Part shown: positions 7,199 to 30,800 of the stretch, in pieces
How positions within the stretch are numbered: position 1 is the first letter of the stretch
Layout of the letters: each line of letters begins with the position of its first letter
Virus record (IMG/VR): IMGVR_UViG_3300011399_000002
Span: 1 to 55,870 of that record
Source of the DNA: a virus
Lineage: Duplodnaviria > Heunggongvirae > Uroviricota > Caudoviricetes
Length of the DNA stretch: 55,870 nucleotides
Reading direction: 5' to 3' (one strand)
Program-made: the position numbers and the translations under genes
Notes under the pieces: model-generated
Databases searched by the model: none
The model's input: the letters and a program-made list of their open reading frames with translations, nothing else
What the model was told of the DNA's origin: nothing

Positions 7199-7273
7199 CT
7201 AGGTGTGGTGTAGCGGTAGCACTTCACGTTTGGGACGTGACGGTCGAAGGTTCGAATCCTTTCACCTAGACCA
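7199..7273 (+). tRNA. trnP: tRNA-Pro(UGG)
   Basis: CTAGGTG/CACCTAG, TCACG-TTTGGGA-CGTGA, A73-CCA. Confidence 0.93.
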
Positions 7274-7293
7274 TTTTTACTTGGGAGTCTAAA

Positions 7294-7701
7294 ATGAATT
7301 AGAAAAAGAGAATGAGAAATAAAGATATTTTTAGAGCAGCAATTGGGAGTGGACACTTTCCTCTGACATTCAATTTCGTATATAGAAGGGATGGAAGATT
7401 TATACAGTGTTACGGTTGTGGTAAATATGTCTACTATAGGCAGATTACGCGCGACCATGTGTACCCTAAAAGTAAGGGCGGGCAACTAAAGGCTCCTGCA
7501 TGTATTGATTGTAATATCAAAAAAGAAAACATGCTACCCATTGAATGGGCCATTTACGCTCATAAGCATAACTTGGATGCCGCTACAATCCCTCTTGGGG
7601 CAGAGTACCTACAAGAGTATGTTGATATGCTGCCAAGTAAGCATGAAATGTATATAAACTTCGCTCAACTCTTTGAGCAAATTATTGCCGGTGTAGCATA
7701 A
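7294..7701 (+). CDS. HNH endonuclease; SD-linked ATG 7294 is followed by in-frame TAG at codon 3 (alternative start ATG 7312)
   Basis: CYGCG...TRDHVYPKSKGG...ACIDCNIKK is an HNH signature. GGGAG-6 nt-ATG AAT TAG AAA AAG AGA ATG is in frame with the 129-aa ORF. Confidence 0.8.
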
Positions 7702-7761
7702 TGGTTAATGTTACAGTCTTCCAAACTGTAGATGTGGGTTCGATTCCCATCACCGGCTCCA
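7687..7761 (+). tRNA. trnG: tRNA-Gly(UCC)
   Basis: GCCGGTG/CACCGGC, ACAGT-CTTCCAA-ACTGT, U73-CCA; its first 15 nt overlap the 3' end of the HNH ORF. Confidence 0.93.
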
Positions 7762-7787
7762 TTTAATCATCAGGTGGTGAATATGAT

Positions 7788-8150
7788 TTGGCAGAACACG
7801 TAACAGTATTTCCATTAAAGGCTAGAACAACAGCACAAACCAGTTCTATTATTGAGAACGACGAAGGCGCAGAGGGTTTAGTTGTAGTTATCGATTGTAC
7901 AGCAGTCGCAGACACTCCTTCTGTTACATTTACAATTCAAGGTTACGATACTACGTCATCTAAAGCCTATACTATTTTAGCATCGGCTGCTATTACAGGC
8001 ACAGGCACAACTGTATTGAGGGTTCATCCCGCATTAACAGCAGCAACAAACACTATAGCAAAAGACTTGTTACCTCGTTACTGGCGCGTAAGCGTAGCAG
8101 TAGCAGATGCAGACTCTATGACTTATAGTGTTGGGGCATCAATGGTTTAA
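7788..8150 (+). CDS. Small all-beta protein, possibly a virion decoration/jelly-roll protein
   Basis: 120 aa, Thr/Ala/Val-rich strands (GLVVVIDCTA, SVTFTIQG, RYWRVSV, TYSVGA). Confidence 0.55.
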   Translation: MAEHVTVFPLKARTTAQTSSIIENDEGAEGLVVVIDCTAVADTPSVTFTIQGYDTTSSKAYTILASAAITGTGTTVLRVHPALTAATNTIAKDLLPRYWRVSVAVADADSMTYSVGASMV

Positions 8151-8155
8151 TTCTA

Positions 8156-8230
8156 CCAGTAGTAATATAGAGGCTATTATGCGTGCTTGCCAAGTACGAC
8201 ACGGGAGTTCGATTCTCCCCTACTGGACCA
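8156..8230 (+). tRNA. tRNA with GCC (Gly) anticodon but non-Gly acceptor end (C1-G72, A73)
   Basis: CCAGTAG/CTACTGG, CGTGC-TTGCCAA-GTACG, GGGAG-TTCGATT-CTCCC, A-CCA. Confidence 0.85.
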
Positions 8231-8245
8231 ATTTATTGTAAGGGG

Positions 8246-9004
8246 ATGGTTCAGATCGTCAGGGTATACTATTGGAAGTCAGTTGCTAACTTCGGTGATC
8301 AATTGAATCCATTGTTACTACGACGATTTCCTAGGCTTCTTACTGAATGGTCGGAACCCGATGATGCGGAGTTAGTGCTTTGTGGTTCAGTGATAGATCG
8401 ATTGCCTAGAGATTGGACAGGAGTTATTGCTGGATCAGGAAAACTGCATGAATACACAAAGGTACCACCGGAGGCAAGAATACTAGCACTTAGGGGACCA
8501 CTCTCTGCAAAGGGAGTTAAAGGTGATTTTGCTCTAGGTGATCCGGGGCTTCTCGCTGATGAATTAATACAAAGAGAAGATAAACAGTATGATCTTGGAA
8601 TCGTTCCGCATTGGACTGACAAGGCTCTGGAATTCGATAAAAGGTTTCTACGTTACAATCCTAGAATCATACGAGTAGCAGACGATCCTCTTGAAGTTAT
8701 CAGAGAAATCGGGCGCTGCAAAAAGATAGTCAGTTCTTCATTACATGGAATAATACTAGCAGATGCTTTCAATATTCCTAGAAGAATAGAGATAGCACCA
8801 AGAATGCTAACTCATCCTCATCAAGAGGGTGGGTTATTCAAATGGCACGATTACAGTGAGAGCATAGGGATGACCTTAGAGATAGGGTTAACCCAGCAAG
8901 CCTCTCCATTTAATATAAGTCAGAGGCAACATGAGTTATATGATGTTCTTAGAGAGTTAAGGGTGGTGTTTAATAGTGGGACGACGACCAAAAGTCAGAC
9001 CTAA
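8246..9004 (+). CDS. Polysaccharide pyruvyltransferase family protein (ExoV-like)
   Basis: Start re-set to ATG 8246; motifs NFGDQLNPLLL, ALRGPLS, GDPGLL, HWTD, VSSSLHGIILADAFNIP. Confidence 0.88.
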   Translation: MVQIVRVYYWKSVANFGDQLNPLLLRRFPRLLTEWSEPDDAELVLCGSVIDRLPRDWTGVIAGSGKLHEYTKVPPEARILALRGPLSAKGVKGDFALGDPGLLADELIQREDKQYDLGIVPHWTDKALEFDKRFLRYNPRIIRVADDPLEVIREIGRCKKIVSSSLHGIILADAFNIPRRIEIAPRMLTHPHQEGGLFKWHDYSESIGMTLEIGLTQQASPFNISQRQHELYDVLRELRVVFNSGTTTKSQT

Positions 9005-9854
9005 GATAAGTCTATTGATCCCCTTTACTACTAGGGACGCATACAGAAAGAAAACTTTTAGGTGGTTACTAGACTACTGGAAGGCAGAGTTGCCCGATGC
9101 AGAGATTGTAATAGGGCATAGCACTGGTCCCGTATTCTGTAAGACAGAGGCTCTTAACAGAGCAGCACACAGAGCAAACGGAAAGGTTCTAGTTGTTCTC
9201 GATGCTGATGCATACATCAGTGGAGCGATATTAAATAACGTAGCAGACATAATACTGGAAGAATTGGAGCAGGGCTATCAAACTTGGTATGTACCGTACA
9301 GAAATCTTTACAGGTTGAACTTAGACACTACACTTGCTATACTGGAATCTGACCCGGAGAACCCGGTGAGGATACCCGATCCGCCACCAGACAATTATCT
9401 TGACAATGAACCTAATGCAGCAAAGTATGGTAGAGCGTTCGCAGCACTTGCATACGTTATACCAAGAGAAGCCCTAGAGGCCATTGAATGCTTTGATGAA
9501 AGGTTCAACAGAGGATGGGGTGGGGAAGATGTATCAACCCTACGAGCATTAGATACACTTTGGGGCAAGCATAAGACTACTCCTAATGGTATCTTCCACT
9601 TATGGCATCCTAAGATCGGAGACACGTTTAAAACAAGAGCGTGGCAAGGTCAGAATGATGATGAGCCGAATAGAAAGTTAGCCGTTCAGTATAAAATTGC
9701 CAGTCAAAACCCCTCTGTAATGAGGGAGTTAGTACGAGAGGGCTGTGACTTCAAGAAAAGAAAAGAAGAAGCAGGAATCTTGTGGGACGGTCCCGATGAA
9801 TGGATGCAGGAAATTATCATAGAAACTGTCGGTAGAAATAAGAAGTTTTTATAG
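8976..9854 (+). CDS. GT-A fold glycosyltransferase (GT2/GT7-like)
   Basis: ISLLIPF, KTEALNRA, LVVLDAD (DxD), FDERFNRGWGGED, FHLWH. Confidence 0.88.
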   Translation: MGRRPKVRPKISLLIPFTTRDAYRKKTFRWLLDYWKAELPDAEIVIGHSTGPVFCKTEALNRAAHRANGKVLVVLDADAYISGAILNNVADIILEELEQGYQTWYVPYRNLYRLNLDTTLAILESDPENPVRIPDPPPDNYLDNEPNAAKYGRAFAALAYVIPREALEAIECFDERFNRGWGGEDVSTLRALDTLWGKHKTTPNGIFHLWHPKIGDTFKTRAWQGQNDDEPNRKLAVQYKIASQNPSVMRELVREGCDFKKRKEEAGILWDGPDEWMQEIIIETVGRNKKFL

Positions 9855-9864
9855 GAGAAAGGAA

Positions 9865-10194
9865 ATGAGTAGCGGAGAAGCAGATGCATACAAGATTCCA
9901 GTTGTAGGTTCGGTAGTAACGGATACAAATACCTCTGGTTTTTATTCAGTAGGTGACTGGTGGACTTCACCGTCTACTAGCACTATACAGTATACCTATA
10001 CTACCAAAGTCTATATGTATCAGATTACCTGTCCTAGATGTAAGCAACTAAATTGGTGCGAATTAGATCAAACAGTAACGTGTGATACTAAACTTCCGAC
10101 AAGGATAGTCGGGCGCAAGAAAGTAGAATCATACTGCGGGGCAGTCTTACAAGCAGTAAAAGATACTGTAGACTATCAAGTCCCCGTAAAGTAA
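9865..10194 (+). CDS. Hypothetical protein with Cys motifs (possible Zn ribbon)
   Basis: 109 aa, SD AAAGGA, CPRC...C...C. Confidence 0.6.
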   Translation: MSSGEADAYKIPVVGSVVTDTNTSGFYSVGDWWTSPSTSTIQYTYTTKVYMYQITCPRCKQLNWCELDQTVTCDTKLPTRIVGRKKVESYCGAVLQAVKDTVDYQVPVK

Positions 10195-10199
10195 CTCAC

Positions 10200-10273
10200 A
10201 TGGAGGTCGTTCAACGGTAGGATCACAGTCTCCAAAACTGTCAATCAGGGTTCGAATCCCTGCCGCCATGCCA
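10200..10273 (+). tRNA. trnW: tRNA-Trp(CCA)
   Basis: ACAGT-CTCCAAA-ACTGT, CAGGG-TTCGAAT-CCCTG, G73-CCA; one A-G mismatch in the acceptor stem. Confidence 0.88.
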
Positions 10274-10293
10274 AACTTAGGAGTTGATTATGG

Positions 10294-10359
10294 GTGGAAG
10301 GTCTACTTATAGTATTGTTAATTATTTGTGCTATAGTGTTCTTGATTAAGAACCTATAA
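10294..10359 (+). CDS. Possible 21-aa single-pass membrane peptide
   Basis: GTG start after AGGAG; MEGLLIVLLIICAIVFLIKNL. Confidence 0.35.
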   Translation: MEGLLIVLLIICAIVFLIKNL

Positions 10360-10366
10360 CATTCAT

Positions 10367-10452
10367 GGGTTAGGTGAGCATGTTCGGTACGCTCAGGAGT
10401 CTGTAAAACTCCCGTCTAGGCTATGCAGGTTCGAATCCTGTCTAACCCACCA
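10367..10452 (+). tRNA. trnY: tRNA-Tyr(GUA)
   Basis: GGGTTAG/CTAACCC, GGAGT-CTGTAAA-ACTCC, long variable arm, A73-CCA. Confidence 0.93.
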
Positions 10453-10453
10453 T

Positions 10454-10528
10454 CCCTTCATCGTATAACGGCTATTATATTTGTCTGTCGAACAAGAGAC
10501 AGGGGTTCAACTCCCCTTGGAGGGGCCA
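10454..10528 (+). tRNA. trnD: tRNA-Asp(GUC)
   Basis: CCCTTCA/TGGAGGG, TTTGT-CTGTCGA-ACAAG, G73-CCA. Confidence 0.9.
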
Positions 10529-10542
10529 AGAAAGGAATAAAA

Positions 10543-10761
10543 ATGAAGAAGTTGATCTTCTTAGTCGCATCTGTTATAGTAGTTGCAGGATGCCGTGCAG
10601 ACTTCTCCCCCGGTGAAACGGTGGAGCAGGGCACAAATCCTCTAGGTACATCACAGATTAAATACGTACATGATGATAAGCATGGAGTAGGCTGTTGGTT
10701 CTTTGTTGATGAATCAGGTTCATCACTAAGTTGTCTTCCTGACAGTCAATATACGCCATAA
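10543..10761 (+). CDS. Small lipoprotein
   Basis: Start re-set to ATG 10543 (SD AAAGGA); MKKLIFLVASVIVVAG-C lipobox; C-terminal HDDKHGVGCW...SCLP. Confidence 0.72.
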   Translation: MKKLIFLVASVIVVAGCRADFSPGETVEQGTNPLGTSQIKYVHDDKHGVGCWFFVDESGSSLSCLPDSQYTP

Positions 10762-10766
10762 TATAT

Positions 10767-10844
10767 GCCGGGGTAGCTCAGTCTGGTAGTAGCGGTTGTT
10801 TGAAGAGCAGCGCGTCGTCGGTTCAAATCCGACTCCCGGCACCA
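10767..10844 (+). tRNA. trnF: tRNA-Phe(GAA)
   Basis: GCCGGGG/TCCCGGC, GTTGT-TTGAAGA-GCAGC, A73-CCA. Confidence 0.92.
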
Positions 10845-10852
10845 ATTTTCGC

Positions 10853-10928
10853 GGGCCAGTAACTTAAAGGATAAGTAGCTGTCTCTTAAACAGTCGTTAT
10901 GAGGGTTCAAGTCCCTTCTGGCTCGCCA
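10853..10928 (+). tRNA. trnK: tRNA-Lys(CUU)
   Basis: GGGCCAG/CTGGCTC, GCTGT-CTCTTAA-ACAGT, G73-CCA (A73 is more usual for Lys). Confidence 0.9.
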
Positions 10929-10950
10929 ACAATTTTAGGAAGTGAAGTGA

Positions 10951-11145
10951 TTGGGTCGATTATATGAAGGATTGTGGAGGGTTCTATTAGTAACTGAAAC
11001 AGTATCAGGTACAGAAAGAATGGCATTCACACAACCAGATGTATATGAAGAATGTGAGAGGCGATGCATCTTGCACGGTATGGGAGTACCATATGAAGGC
11101 GAGAGAGTCAAGCGCGCATTAATCGTAGGCCCAGTAGAGGAATAG
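10951..11145 (+). CDS. Hypothetical protein
   Basis: 64-aa ORF, first of a tightly packed trio. Confidence 0.5.
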   Translation: MGRLYEGLWRVLLVTETVSGTERMAFTQPDVYEECERRCILHGMGVPYEGERVKRALIVGPVEE

Positions 11146-11152
11146 GAGTACA

Positions 11153-11326
11153 ATGGAAAAAGAGCATGAGCGTTTATGGAACGCTTATGAGGCAACGGCA
11201 AAGAAAATCAAGGCTCAACTTAATTCACCCAAGGGTGGAACACAGGCAGAGTCAGAATTCAAGATTGCATACCAGAATCTAGTGAAGGCTGGATTGGCTA
11301 TGCAAATCAAGAAGAAGTATCGATGA
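11153..11326 (+). CDS. Hypothetical protein (57 aa, not in the ORF track)
   Basis: SD AGGAG; MEKEHERLWNAYEATAKKIK...QIKKKYR; stop overlaps the next ATG (ATGA). Confidence 0.65.
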   Translation: MEKEHERLWNAYEATAKKIKAQLNSPKGGTQAESEFKIAYQNLVKAGLAMQIKKKYR

Positions 11327-11514
11327 ACAACGCAATAAGAATAGAGGAGTTAATTACTTTTCTAATCGATGCTGGCATGGAAGAAGAAACCGTGCAACAC
11401 TTCTTGAACAGAAAGATATTCAAGGATCGTTCGCTTATGGAGTATATAAGAGAAGATGAGTGGCTTAAAGTTTGGGGTTATGCCCAAGCATACATGGCCG
11501 GTGATCAAATCTAA
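11323..11514 (+). CDS. Hypothetical protein
   Basis: 63-aa ORF coupled to the upstream stop. Confidence 0.6.
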   Translation: MNNAIRIEELITFLIDAGMEEETVQHFLNRKIFKDRSLMEYIREDEWLKVWGYAQAYMAGDQI

Positions 11515-11517
11515 CAT

Positions 11518-11592
11518 GGTGATGTTAGTGTAACGGCAACACTTCTGGTTGTGGTCCAGACATTACGGGTTCGAATCCCGTACATCACCCCA
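11518..11592 (+). tRNA. trnH: tRNA-His(GUG) with encoded G-1
   Basis: G-1/C73, GTGATGT/ACATCAC, TCTGG-TTGTGGT-CCAGA, CCA. Confidence 0.93.
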
Positions 11593-11605
11593 ATTAAGGT
11601 AGGAA

Positions 11606-11857
11606 ATGATAAAGTACGGCAGCACTATTCGGTTAAAGTTTATCATGACTGATAACTTTGGAGAACGGGTTCTTTACGAAGAGCCCTTCACCTTTACTAA
11701 GGATCATTATAAGGTACGGAAATTCATAGAGGCTTTTCAACAAGGCGTTGAGGATGCCCTCAAAGACCTTGATCGTGACGTAGAGTATCTTGATAGACTA
11801 CGTGACATTCCTACAGCCGTCCTACAGGGAGAGATTAAACGAAGATCAATTCGTTAG
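11606..11857 (+). CDS. Hypothetical protein
   Basis: 83-aa ORF between tRNAs. Confidence 0.55.
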   Translation: MIKYGSTIRLKFIMTDNFGERVLYEEPFTFTKDHYKVRKFIEAFQQGVEDALKDLDRDVEYLDRLRDIPTAVLQGEIKRRSIR

Positions 11858-11931
11858 CCTAGTCGTCCAACGGTAGAAGATATCTCGCTGATAACGAGAG
11901 GAACGCAGTTCAACTCTGCGCTAGGCTACCA
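11856..11931 (+). tRNA. trnI: tRNA-Ile(GAU)
   Basis: AGCCTAG/CTAGGCT, TCTCG-CTGATAA-CGAGA, A73-CCA. Confidence 0.92.
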
Positions 11932-11937
11932 CTTTAT

Positions 11938-12011
11938 ACTCCTTTAGTGTAAAGGCTGCACGCCTCACTCTAAATGAGAAAGAAGGGGTTCGATTCCCCT
12001 AGGGAGTACCA
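11938..12011 (+). tRNA. Amber suppressor tRNA, anticodon CUA (reads UAG)
   Basis: ACTCCTT/AGGGAGT, D-arm GTGT/GCAC, CCTCA-CTCTAAA-TGAGA, AGGGG-TTCGATT-CCCCT, A73-CCA. Confidence 0.88.
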
Positions 12012-12014
12012 AAT

Positions 12015-12188
12015 ATGCTTGAAGAAGAATTTAAACAGCACCTACGGATTACATTGCTGTGGTACACAGCATGGCTTGTAGCACACGGTCCTAAAGACCC
12101 AGCAACAGATATGAACAAATCTGTTAATACCTTTCTTGAAGAGGATGAAGATTTAATTGTACGATTTTTTGATATGCAGGAGAAGTAA
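12015..12188 (+). CDS. Hypothetical protein (57 aa, not in the ORF track)
   Basis: MLEEEFKQHLRITLLWYTAWLV...FFDMQEK directly after the suppressor tRNA. Confidence 0.55.
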   Translation: MLEEEFKQHLRITLLWYTAWLVAHGPKDPATDMNKSVNTFLEEDEDLIVRFFDMQEK

Positions 12189-12190
12189 GA

Positions 12191-12424
12191 ATGACTTAGC
12201 GTTACCAGATAGACGTTAATGGTTATAAAGTTAAACAGGCTAAAGAAGGTTTGGATACACCTTGTATCCGTATCATGGATAATACTACTGGACAGATTTG
12301 GTATGCCAAGGAGATTAAGTTTCTTGGCCCAACACAAATCTCTCAGTGTGATCCTGATAAAGATAACCTCAACAAACCTTTTATCTGGATTGAGACTGAT
12401 GGTCCTATAGAGTGGACTAAATAA
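12191..12424 (+). CDS. Phage protein of 77 codons interrupted by in-frame TAG at codon 3
   Basis: SD CAGGAG, then ATG ACT TAG and an open frame RYQIDVNGYKVKQAKEGLDTPCIRIMDNTTGQIWYAKEIKFLGPTQISQCDPDKDNLNKPFIWIETDGPIEWTK to TAA. By eye it resembles a widespread small phage family (IHVN...P.I.V...Y..E..ILGP...VWIET). Confidence 0.7.
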
Positions 12425-27887: not shown

Positions 27888-30800
27888 TTGGCTGATATAG
27901 TTATCAGGTTTACAGGAGATGCATCTGGATTAGCGTCCTTCTACCAGAGCGTAGGTGCACAGACTGATGCCTTTGTTAATAAGATACAGAAGACCTACCA
28001 AGGGCAATTTAGAGATGTTCTAGGACTTAAAACAACAAGACTACCTATTATTGATCCTGCTACAAATAAGCAGATGCGTGACGTATTTGGTAGCAAGATG
28101 TTCAAAACAACAGGATCAGACATTAGAAACATCTCTGTTGAGATGGATCGTCTTAATGATGTTATTAAAGTCACAGGTGAAACAGGCTTTAGATTAGCCA
28201 ACGGGTCATTCTTTCCTGTCGGTACGACTAGCATTGTCCGTGGTAGCGTTACGGAGTTAGAAAAAGCGCGCAAGGTAATCGGACAAATTCTAACACAAAG
28301 GGACCTACTACAGGCTAGATACGGAAACGCTAAAGAGATTCTTGGCGCACAAAGAATTGCAGGACTAGCAGCAGCAGGACCCGCACAAGTAGCAAAAGAT
28401 GCAGCAGAGGCAAGACGGAATCAAACACGCGCAGATAGAGATGCTTTAACGCAGGAAATTAGGGATAGACAAAGACTACGAAGACCCGGTGGAACATACG
28501 CAGGGTTACGTGGAGTAGCAGCTTCTTCTTATGATGCACTAACAAATAGAAGGATAACTGAAAGAAACGGTCTAACTGCACGTCTAGCAAGGGAAACTTC
28601 TGCGCTAGCAGCAGCACAAGCACGCTATAATGCCATGCTTGCTGATCCTAGAATTGCTCAATATCCTGCTAAACTAGCAGCAATTGAGGCTAGACAGGCT
28701 AGAGAGTTAAACAGATTACGAGGCGGATTAAATACTGCCCGTGCAGCAGAAGCGGCTGTTCTCTCTGATACAAATGTAGGTCTACCAGTCGGTTACAAGC
28801 AGATACCTCCACAGCTTTTAAGACAGTTAAAAAAGGGCGGTCTTGGTGCAGGTCCAGCGGGTATTGGTGAGAATCTTGTCAATCAAAATGCTGAGTTTAA
28901 CAGAGCCGTATATGATATGGAACGTGGCCTAATTAGATTAGGTGGTTCTTATGATCAGGTAATCAAGACTAAGTATGGCGATATTACTGCAACTAAGCAA
29001 TGGAATGCCACAGTAGATGAACAGGGTCGAGTGGTTCAAACCTCAACTAGAAACTTACGAGGACTTAGCAGACTAACCCAACAAATTTCTAAGGACTTCC
29101 AGAAAGTTATCGAATGGACAGTTGCTACAACTGTAGTATTCGGTGCCCTAGCAGCCGCAGGACAAGGACTGCAAATTATCAAGGAAATGGATGCTGACTT
29201 AGCCAGACTATCTCTTACTGCTAATACAACAAGTGAACAAACAAAAGTTCTTTACGAGGGCTTAGTAAATGTTGCAAATATTACTGCTACTCCTCTTGAA
29301 GAGTTAGTAAAGGCAGCGGACGACTTGGCTCTTGCCGTAAGACGACCGGGCCAAACAGCACAGCAACTAACTAGTGAAATCACAACCTTGGCAGAGGCAG
29401 TTGGTATCTATACTAACTTGACTGGTGAGGATACAGTAGCAGCAACAGATGAATTAGTTGCTGTTATGAAGCAGTTAGGTTATACTGCTACAGAAGTTTA
29501 TGGTATTTTGAACAAAGTAACTGCCGCCGCTGGTGGACAGTCAGGAACAATTTCTGACATTACAAGAGCCCTATCAGTTATGGCAGAGGCAGGAGAACAG
29601 GCTAACCTAACAGTTGATCAACAGATCGGTGTTATCAAGACACTATCACAGGTTACTTCAAAGTCTCCTGCGGAAATTGCCACAGCATTCAAGAACCTAG
29701 TTGGAGCATTGGAAAACCCAGCCGCTCTAAAGGCTCTAAAGAGTTATAATATTGGCCTTATTAAAGAAGGTAACAGTATTATTGATATCTATACTCAGAT
29801 TGCAGAGAAGATTAGAACAGGTGCCATTGCTCCTAATGATGTATCTGGATTACTACGAGCAATCTCAGGTGGACCAAGACGAGCCCCTGATGCAGCGGCT
29901 TTGCTTGCTAATATCAACACAGTATTAAAGGAAACAGAGGTTTCAGCAAACGCTACAAACGAAGCATTCGTTGCTAACGCTGCCGTTCTTGATACATTAA
30001 ATGCTAAGATGGTTCAATTCCAGAACGTTCTAAAGGATAAAATCTTTGTAACGTTTGGAGATATCTTTAAGCAAGCAGTAGAAACCTTGCTTCCGCTTAT
30101 AACGCAACTCTTGGATAAATTCAGTGGTATTAATCCTCAAATTCTTATTGTCCTAGGGGGCCTTGTTCTTCTAAGAGCAGCACTAGGGTTAACTTTAAGA
30201 GCCCTACGTTCTATCGGTATACCCGGTATGTTTACTGGTGCAATCACAGGAGCATCAACACTAAAGAAGGAATTACTAGGTGTTGCAGCAGCAGCACAAT
30301 TAGTAGCCCAAGCAACAAAGGCAGGTGGAATAGGAGCAGGTATTAAGGGCGGTCTTGCTCTAACTAACAGGGGTTCTATTGGTGCAGGTTTAGTTGGTGC
30401 TGGTGTTGGTGCTGCATTAGGTGCAGCAGGTGGAGGAGGACTATCACAAATTGCAGGTGGTGGTCTACAAGGATTAGGTTTAGCACTTCTAACATTACCT
30501 GAACCTACAATGCTTACGAAGATTGCTGGCGGTATTGCACTTATTGGTGGAACATTCCTAAGTCTACAGCAAGAGGCTGGACCAACAGCGGAAGAACTAG
30601 ATGCTAACGCTCAGGCAATTTTAAATGTGCATGAGTCAGCAATAACAGCAGGAAAATCCCTATCTGATTTAGCAACAACACAAAGAGATGTAAAAGAGCA
30701 AATAGCGGCTCTTGAAAAGGCGACAGAGAAAGACCCTGAACAACAGGCTCTTCTCAACGATCTTTACTCACAGTATGCGTCTAATATCCTAGCGTCCACA

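Follow-up and report, generated by a model that had tools for sequence, protein, structure and literature searches.

The stretch of DNA analyzed here (the window) comprises the first 55,870 bases of the 119,870-bp IMG/VR record IMGVR_UViG_3300011399_000002, an uncultivated virus of the Caudoviricetes (genome G000), and this account concerns a tRNA with the anticodon CUA, tRNA(CUA), that is encoded there along with two genes in which the third codon is the amber triplet TAG. The whole record has 123-bp direct terminal repeats, a G+C content of 43%, and 28 tRNAs called by ARAGORN, 18 of which fall in a + strand array at 5.9–13.2 kb, between a gene for a 1727-residue fibre-like protein and the gene for the large terminase (TerL). 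Among INPHARED phages, there was no match to this region at the DNA level, nor to the small protein described below at the protein level; relatives of the small gene were found by protein or profile searches of IMG/VR, JGI metagenomes, and a library of 1.84 billion proteins, after which the encoding contigs were looked up. The tRNA, the two genes, and their Shine–Dalgarno (SD) motifs are listed here, and they agree with an earlier note on the window, which had pointed to an intact tRNA(CUA) and to two SD-linked ATG-NNN-TAG starts:

7283–7287, + strand: SD motif GGGAG, 6 nt upstream of the ATG at 7294.
7294–7701, + strand: HNH_5 endonuclease gene (identified by Pfam), beginning ATG AAT TAG (7294–7302), with TAG as third codon (7300–7302) and a second in-frame ATG at 7312.
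11938–12011, + strand: tRNA with anticodon CUA, which reads UAG; 74 nt, called by ARAGORN and by the Rfam tRNA model.
12178–12182, + strand: SD motif AGGAG, 8 nt upstream of the ATG at 12191.
12191–12424, + strand: small gene of 77 codons (identified by its homologues), beginning ATG ACT TAG (12191–12199), with TAG as third codon (12197–12199).

The tRNA(CUA) scores 56.1 bits against the Rfam model RF00005 (gathering score 29), which places it among elongator tRNAs. The ARAGORN drawing shows an acceptor stem of 7 bp, D and T arms of normal form, and a CCA end encoded in the DNA, with A1–U72, discriminator A73, a 4-nt variable loop, a 7-nt anticodon loop (CU-CUA-AA), the T loop TTCGATT, a 7-nt D loop containing GG, and an anticodon stem of 4–5 bp. 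A C27/A43 mismatch at the top of this stem reduces it to 4 bp; ARAGORN drawings of the other tRNA(CUA)s show five anticodon-stem pairs or, in L052, four plus a G/A mismatch at the top. ARAGORN labels any tRNA with a CUA anticodon “Pyl.” Judged on architecture alone, this tRNA is not tRNA-Pyl: its normal D loop with GG, its 4-nt variable loop, and its shorter anticodon stem depart from the 6-bp anticodon stem, 3-nt variable loop, and small D loop lacking GG that characterize tRNA-Pyl. No Theta/HDV-like ribozyme or other Rfam element was identified beside the tRNA(CUA) in an Rfam scan. A candidate second suppressor, tRNA(UCA), at 108688–108757 of G000 (beyond the window) was set aside as probably not one, being a 70-nt ARAGORN “tRNA-SeC” call without a CCA end.

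Ten distinct members of the small gene were found (G000, G003, G004, L052, L053, L054, L055, L056/L065, L058-60, and L061), sharing 38–87% amino acid identity. In 10 of 10, an SD motif, an ATG or GTG start, a Thr, Ser, or Ala codon (ACT, ACA, ACG, TCA, or GCC), TAG, and the conserved frame follow one another in phase, the motif being of GGAG/GAGG type and 5–10 nt upstream of the start codon in every member. Length differences just after the TAG amount to one whole codon (GCA, GCT, or GGT), i.e., 3-nt indels by which the frame is kept. For the 17 codons past the TAG, pairwise difference rates are 0.18, 0.23, and 0.53 at the first, second, and third codon positions, respectively, and synonymous codon differences exceed non-synonymous ones (263 vs. 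176); on account of this third-position and synonymous excess, the codons directly following the TAG appear to be translated. The members share no alternative start, as the first in-frame ATG, GTG, or TTG after the TAG varies in position between codons 8 and 75, and the L058 gene has no such start at all. The copy in L055 (244–561) also terminates in TAG, 6 nt upstream of its tRNA(CUA), and read-through there would add four residues.

A tRNA(CUA) is encoded within ~1 kb of the small gene at 9 of the 10 loci; the remaining contig (L054) stops short of where one might lie. The tRNA is upstream of the small gene in G000 and L056/L065 and downstream elsewhere, in at least four different tRNA neighborhoods. 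The open reading frames (ORFs) that lie between the two show no similarity across loci, except for those of L060 and L054, and the linkage is therefore only between the tRNA(CUA) and the small gene. In G000, the intervening feature is as follows:

12015–12188, + strand: ORF of 57 codons between tRNA(CUA) and the small gene, with its TAA stop 2 nt before the ATG at 12191.

This ORF was considered as a third component, and rejected as variable cargo because it is not conserved between loci. A tRNA-Cys(GCA) directly follows the tRNA(CUA) in L053 (928–1001) and L055 (565–639), and directly follows the small gene in L057 (545–618) and L065 (5156–5229); there is no tRNA-Cys at the corresponding place in G000.

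The product of the second TAG-bearing gene matches Pfam HNH_5 (PF14279) over residues 33–75 with 35.7 bits (curated cut-off 27.5). The gene lies between tRNA-Pro(UGG) and tRNA-Gly(UCC) (window 7199–7761), as it does in L004, L006, L011, L014, L018, L020, and L071; an HNH_5 gene is present in every relative examined, ~6 kb upstream of the terminase, and this family-wide synteny indicates a core gene rather than a stray homing nuclease. In G000, its 3′ end overlaps the tRNA-Gly(UCC). The closest homologues (L062, L063, L064, and L065/66; 69–73% identity) all begin with ATG-NNN-TAG, three codons, and ATG:

G000: ATG AAT TAG AAA AAG AGA ATG
L062: ATG CGT TAG AAT CGT AAG ATG
L063: ATG AAT TAG AGA AAG AGA ATG
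L064: ATG CAG TAG CGT AGA AAA ATG
L065/66: ATG AAT TAG AAA CGG AGA ATG

Of the 15 codons between TAG and the second ATG, 14 specify Lys or Arg, switching between AAA, AGA, CGT, and CGG, so that conservation is at the amino acid level. The first ATG is preceded at 5–10 nt by GAGG or AGGAG in L063, L064, and L065, and the ATG at 7312 of G000 has no SD motif at a usable distance. In the HNH gene of L011, the position of the later Met is occupied by TTA, which identifies the upstream ATG as the start used by the family. More distant HNH proteins, from relatives without tRNA(CUA), have no TAG and start M-V-K-K-R-R-M or M-G-K-K-R-R-L; the HNH gene of G003 starts ATG AAC AAG. The column of the G000 TAG is AAG (Lys) in 4 of 4 alignable TAG-less relatives.

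A further HNH candidate, in G002, has AAGGAG-N9-ATG ACA TAG in frame before the HNH gene. It is unconfirmed, with the TAG falling within a TAGGAG that is also present in L007, and with relatives (P0059-62 and L067) that start at MEDNR without a TAG; it is kept only as a possible third case. In L007 (4633–4652) and L067 (19–39), which encode HNH proteins of the MEDNR type, the ATG nearest the SD motif (4 nt) is out of frame, and that of the HNH gene follows 8 nt later, at a distance of 12 nt from the SD motif; this may be a short overlapping leader.

Among relatives, the module is patchy on the scale of terminase divergence, and the codon-3 TAGs travel with the tRNA(CUA). The 14.9-kb contig L065, with a TerL 84% identical to that of G000, has the HNH TAG, the tRNA(CUA), and the small gene with its TAG together, whereas the tRNA(CUA), the small gene, and the HNH TAG are all absent from G001 (complete, 120,336 bp) and L071, which have TerL proteins that are also 84% identical to that of G000, and the whole Leu-to-Met tRNA array. 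At 67% TerL identity, a tRNA(CUA) is encoded by G002, G003, and G004; L006 and G005, at the same identity, have no tRNA(CUA), no small gene, no HNH TAG, and no supported codon-3 TAG. There is likewise no tRNA(CUA) and no supported codon-3 TAG in L011, L014, and L018/L022 (~63% TerL identity). The negative-control relatives G005, L006, L011, L014, and L018 carry full tRNA arrays, yet lack the tRNA(CUA), the small gene, and the HNH TAG. The earlier note had suggested that relatives be compared for the CUA tRNA and the codon-3 TAGs, and the two do co-occur. The TAG is kept in 15 of 15 sequences (10 of the small gene and 5 of the HNH subclade), which come from independent samples and assemblies, and codons 2 and 4 turn over. 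The pattern is not statistically rare within a single genome; it is beyond chance because it is conserved in 10/10 and 5/5 sequences. As far as comparison of sequences can show, selection acts on the TAG and on the reading frame that runs through it, and the presence of the TAGs goes along with that of the tRNA(CUA).

Elsewhere in the genome, TAG remains an ordinary stop codon. It terminates 36 of 160 rough gene calls in G000 (~22%), vs. 31 of 150 in G001 and 32 of 130 in G005, which are free of the suppressor; all 11 genes that had been named as ending in TAG were verified to do so. These TAG stops are often followed by another TAG rather than by a different back-up stop. The genes for the 1727-residue protein and a 1050-residue protein in the window are open in the standard code, in keeping with the claim that the genes of 1000–1700 codons need no TAG read-through. 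When each stop codon in turn is read as sense, the open-frame total in G000 is 185 kb for TAG, 180 kb for TAA, and 177 kb for TGA, and internal stops spanned by homology number 46 for TAG, 72 for TAA, and 63 for TGA, all of them frame noise. A genome-wide scan for an SD motif, a start, any codon, TAG, and an open frame, which had also been proposed in the earlier note, gave five TAG cases in G000, of which three are junk frames or have a start just past the stop. Codon-3 candidates at 28015, 70181, 83163, 89062, 34723, 70033, and 84274 of G000 were rejected as junk frames or as normal starts directly after a stop. No other in-frame TAG with support was identified in the 120-kb genome. In L006 and L007, a “GTG AGC TAG” before a 156-codon frame is the stop of an upstream glycosyltransferase-like gene. 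The conserved gene that follows this glycosyltransferase-like gene in L006 (19398–19877) and L007, of Zn-ribbon type, has CTG where all relatives start with TTG, GTG, or ATG; in L006 the nearest canonical start in frame lies 108 codons into the gene, which has either a CTG start or a damaged start.

Recoded phages (crAss-like, Lak, and others) encode suppressor tRNAs and read TAG as Gln (genetic code 15) (Borges et al., bioRxiv 10.1101/2021.08.26.457843). Of the features of such phages, G000 has the phage-encoded tRNA(CUA), but neither in-frame TAGs in many genes nor a depletion of TAG as terminator. There is also no evidence of a code-change module (a phage release factor or a matching aminoacyl-tRNA synthetase): the 119,870-bp genome has no match to RF-1, tRNA-synt_1c, or tRNA-synt_2, for which control genomes do match, and thus no gene for a release factor or for a synthetase of GlnRS or LysRS type. 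It has no PTH2 gene either. Global or partial recoding of TAG is rejected on these grounds, given only two genes with in-frame TAG and no depletion of TAG as terminator.

The explanation that accounts best for these observations, and that we consider probable, is that the translation of selected genes depends on the suppressor tRNA of the phage itself, with TAG acting as a stop elsewhere. This is the choice that the earlier note had made over global recoding, and it is borne out by comparison: the TAGs co-occur with tRNA(CUA) and are missing from relatives that are just as close but have no such tRNA. Dependence of both genes on the tRNA(CUA) appears quite probable from the comparative data; that the codon-3 TAG is a selected regulatory gate, beyond being merely tolerated, is a real possibility that falls somewhat short of probable. 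The ribosome would start at a good SD-linked ATG, synthesize fMet-X, and meet UAG at codon 3, where the presence of charged suppressor would permit read-through and its absence would lead to termination after a dipeptide. Full-length HNH endonuclease and small protein would be made only once the phage tRNA had been transcribed, processed, and charged by a host enzyme, and TAG at the ends of other genes would still terminate. A single tRNA(CUA) would in this way serve two genes: that of the small beta protein alongside it and that of the conserved HNH nuclease 4.6 kb upstream. Work on Escherichia coli minigenes and lambda bar points to slow termination on dipeptidyl-tRNA. Codon 3 might be favored because release factor-mediated termination would be slow at that point, such that a modest suppressor could win there and leave ordinary TAG stops mostly intact; additionally, failed decoding at codon 3 would cost only a dipeptide. 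The earlier note had suggested timing, or keeping a toxic nuclease off, as possible purposes. The purpose may be a delay or gate on a nuclease and a small protein; a delay or threshold on the HNH nuclease in particular is plausible, although this is speculation.

It has to be asked whether the TAGs are instead tolerated drift or an early step of recoding, whereby, with the suppressor present, changes from AAG or CAG to TAG are near-neutral at permissive N-terminal sites, such that the genes need the tRNA but nothing is regulated. We regard this as unlikely. It would explain how the HNH TAG arose, which sits one base change away from the AAG of TAG-less relatives, and it agrees with the variability of codon position 3 across the wider family (phrog_8676) to which the small protein appears to be distantly related; furthermore, gain of a suppressor has been proposed to precede the accumulation of in-frame stops (Borges et al., bioRxiv 10.1101/2021.08.26.457843). 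However, a neutral TAG should somewhere have reverted to one of its eight one-step sense codons, and 15 of 15 sequences keep it; the codon-3 TAG has two independent origins (three if the unconfirmed G002 case is counted), every one of them at codon 3; and the 120-kb genome has gathered no further in-frame TAGs. Its undepleted use of TAG as a stop and its G+C content of 43% are unlike the proposed precursor state. The earlier note had offered an early stage of recoding as its second possibility, and this is disfavored because the TAG is fixed across deep divergence and is always at codon 3.

Alternatively, ATG-NNN-TAG could be a two-codon leader ORF that loads ribosomes, with the protein starting downstream (at 7312 for the HNH gene, and at a rare start codon of the ATA/ATT kind for the small gene) and the tRNA(CUA) being unrelated. 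An ATG is found exactly three codons past the TAG in 5 of 5 TAG-bearing HNH genes, and gene callers place the starts of HNH homologues there; an Ile codon (ATA, ATT, or ATC) is likewise conserved 3–4 codons past the small-gene TAG. Yet the codons that separate the TAG from this ATG or Ile codon show conservation of the encoded amino acids, with synonymous and Lys/Arg switching, the SD motifs are spaced for the upstream rather than the downstream start, and, past the TAG, the small gene of L058 lacks any canonical start in frame. A leader would also leave unexplained why these stops occur only alongside tRNA(CUA) and why they are always TAG, never TAA or TGA, and we consider it very improbable. 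Least credible of all, to the point of being negligible, is an artifact of sequencing or assembly, or decay into pseudogenes. In its favor, a single codon is at issue in each gene, and gene callers miss or truncate both; but the same TAG recurs in 15 sequences from independent samples and assemblies, and the frames downstream are under purifying selection.

Several points weigh against dependence on the suppressor tRNA as the explanation. TAG ends about a fifth of the genes of this phage without non-TAG back-up stops, and a strong suppressor should be costly with so many TAG stops, which requires the extra assumption that suppression is weak or position-dependent. The ATG three codons past the TAG in all five TAG-bearing HNH genes might permit some tRNA-independent synthesis by re-initiation, and no match of known structure or function points to a role for the small protein. 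The small-gene-linked tRNA(CUA)s are diverse (discriminator A, U, or G; 53–89% identity), which does not support a single co-evolving pair of tRNA and gene. Phylogenetic independence does not hold for the co-occurrence counts, and many of the contigs are short. Finally, the basis of the explanation is wholly comparative, with expression and charging of the tRNA(CUA) presumed.

The inserted residue would be Lys or Gln. For the tRNA of G000, the nearest relative is the tRNA(CUA) of L056/L065 (75% identity), which is of the same type (A73 and a 4-nt variable loop). The other small-gene-linked tRNA(CUA)s have U73 in four cases, G73 in two, and A73 in one (L060); A73 is also present in the tRNA(CUA) of G002, which is not linked to a small gene, and 4 of the 5 further tRNA(CUA)s that were aligned first have a 5-nt variable loop. 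No isoacceptor of these phages is more than 80% identical to the tRNA(CUA)s. The earlier note had guessed that both TAGs are read as Lys; the column of the HNH TAG agrees, but the identity elements of the tRNAs vary, and for the tRNA itself Lys is no more than a candidate. The Lys of TAG-less relatives at that column favors Lys, and the usual reassignment in phages favors Gln, as does the translation of P0004, a relative of the small protein, in one data source, which already uses TAG = Q. In E. coli, CUA-anticodon amber suppressors that lack a strong identity in the acceptor tend to be substrates of GlnRS or LysRS, by way of U35.

The small protein has an all-beta predicted fold (AlphaFold2 model with a predicted local distance difference test score of 73) and appears to be a distant relative of phrog_8676, a family of unknown function. 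The protein of the window (P0001) has no match to phrog_8676, and its relative P0004 has one at E = 0.0022; proteins reached by the profile of the small-protein subfamily (E = 1e-4 to 6e-7) match phrog_8676 at E = 1e-14 to 1e-17. For the small protein, there was no Pfam match and no match to a solved structure (best Foldseek E = 0.84; best VIA-align Z = 3.4); matches in AFDB and BFVD were only to uncharacterized proteins, and a protein-atlas search gave no usable match. The small-protein profile also matches five repeated stretches in each of P0009 (2312 residues), P0015 (1038 residues), and P0025 (739 residues, an autotransporter), which are probably surface-located large proteins, and from these five-fold matches we infer that the fold also exists as a tandem repeat module. 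In Bacteriophage DSS3_PM1 (L068; MN602267.1, 11572–13368), a TAG-less relative of the small protein, belonging to phrog_8676, is encoded right after genes for a metallophosphoesterase and RNA ligase 2, a neighborhood that looks like an RNA-repair setting; the neighbors in phages Melnitz and OLIVR5 are uninformative.

Known systems share parts of this arrangement. Lambda bar minigenes consist of an SD motif, AUG, one sense codon, and a stop, with non-coding sequence behind, and act by tRNA sequestration. The SD motif and first nine bases of each codon-3 TAG gene have this layout; unlike in bar, the stop is followed in phase by a conserved coding frame, and the gene for a cognate suppressor is close by, which places these genes outside the bar type. 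In prfB, which encodes RF2, an early in-frame UGA is escaped by a +1 frameshift, and the gene senses its own product. An early in-frame stop that ties output to competition at the ribosomal A site is common to both, but in the present case there is no change of frame, and the competitor would be a dedicated tRNA. Classical amber genes, whether on suppressor hosts or with phage-borne suppressors such as T4 psu1, are expressed only with a suppressor tRNA, as proposed here; those ambers are laboratory mutations, whereas here the amber is the conserved wild-type state and the phage supplies the suppressor. What G000 has in common with code-15 phages is a tRNA(CUA) encoded by a phage whose host uses the standard code, together with phage genes that contain in-frame TAG; the idea of control at translation is a further parallel, as recoding has been proposed to regulate the timing of gene translation (Borges et al., bioRxiv 10.1101/2021.08.26.457843). 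Code-15 phages have tens to hundreds of TAGs across late and lysis genes and rarely use TAG as a stop; G000, in contrast, has two client genes, with the TAG always at codon 3, ends ~22% of its genes in TAG, and has no release factor or synthetase for a code change. No report that pairs a third-codon amber with a phage suppressor tRNA was found in full-text searches of the literature.

Standard gene callers truncate or miss every codon-3 TAG gene, and such loci are consequently wrongly annotated. Suppressor tRNAs of standard-code phages are usually regarded as orphans or as a first step toward recoding; if the explanation proposed here is true, these orphan tRNAs would gain a concrete job, namely, the translation of a small set of locked genes, and the arrangement would be a natural single-codon translational switch, similar to the amber switches built by synthetic biologists. 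More tentatively, UAG might have a double meaning by position (sense at codon 3, stop at gene ends), and the codon-3 amber lock might be a general, portable device, with the tRNA as key to any number of locked genes and with differing clients in unrelated phages. Should poor termination on dipeptidyl-tRNA be the reason why codon 3 is preferred, one codon would carry two meanings within one genome with no change of the genetic code.

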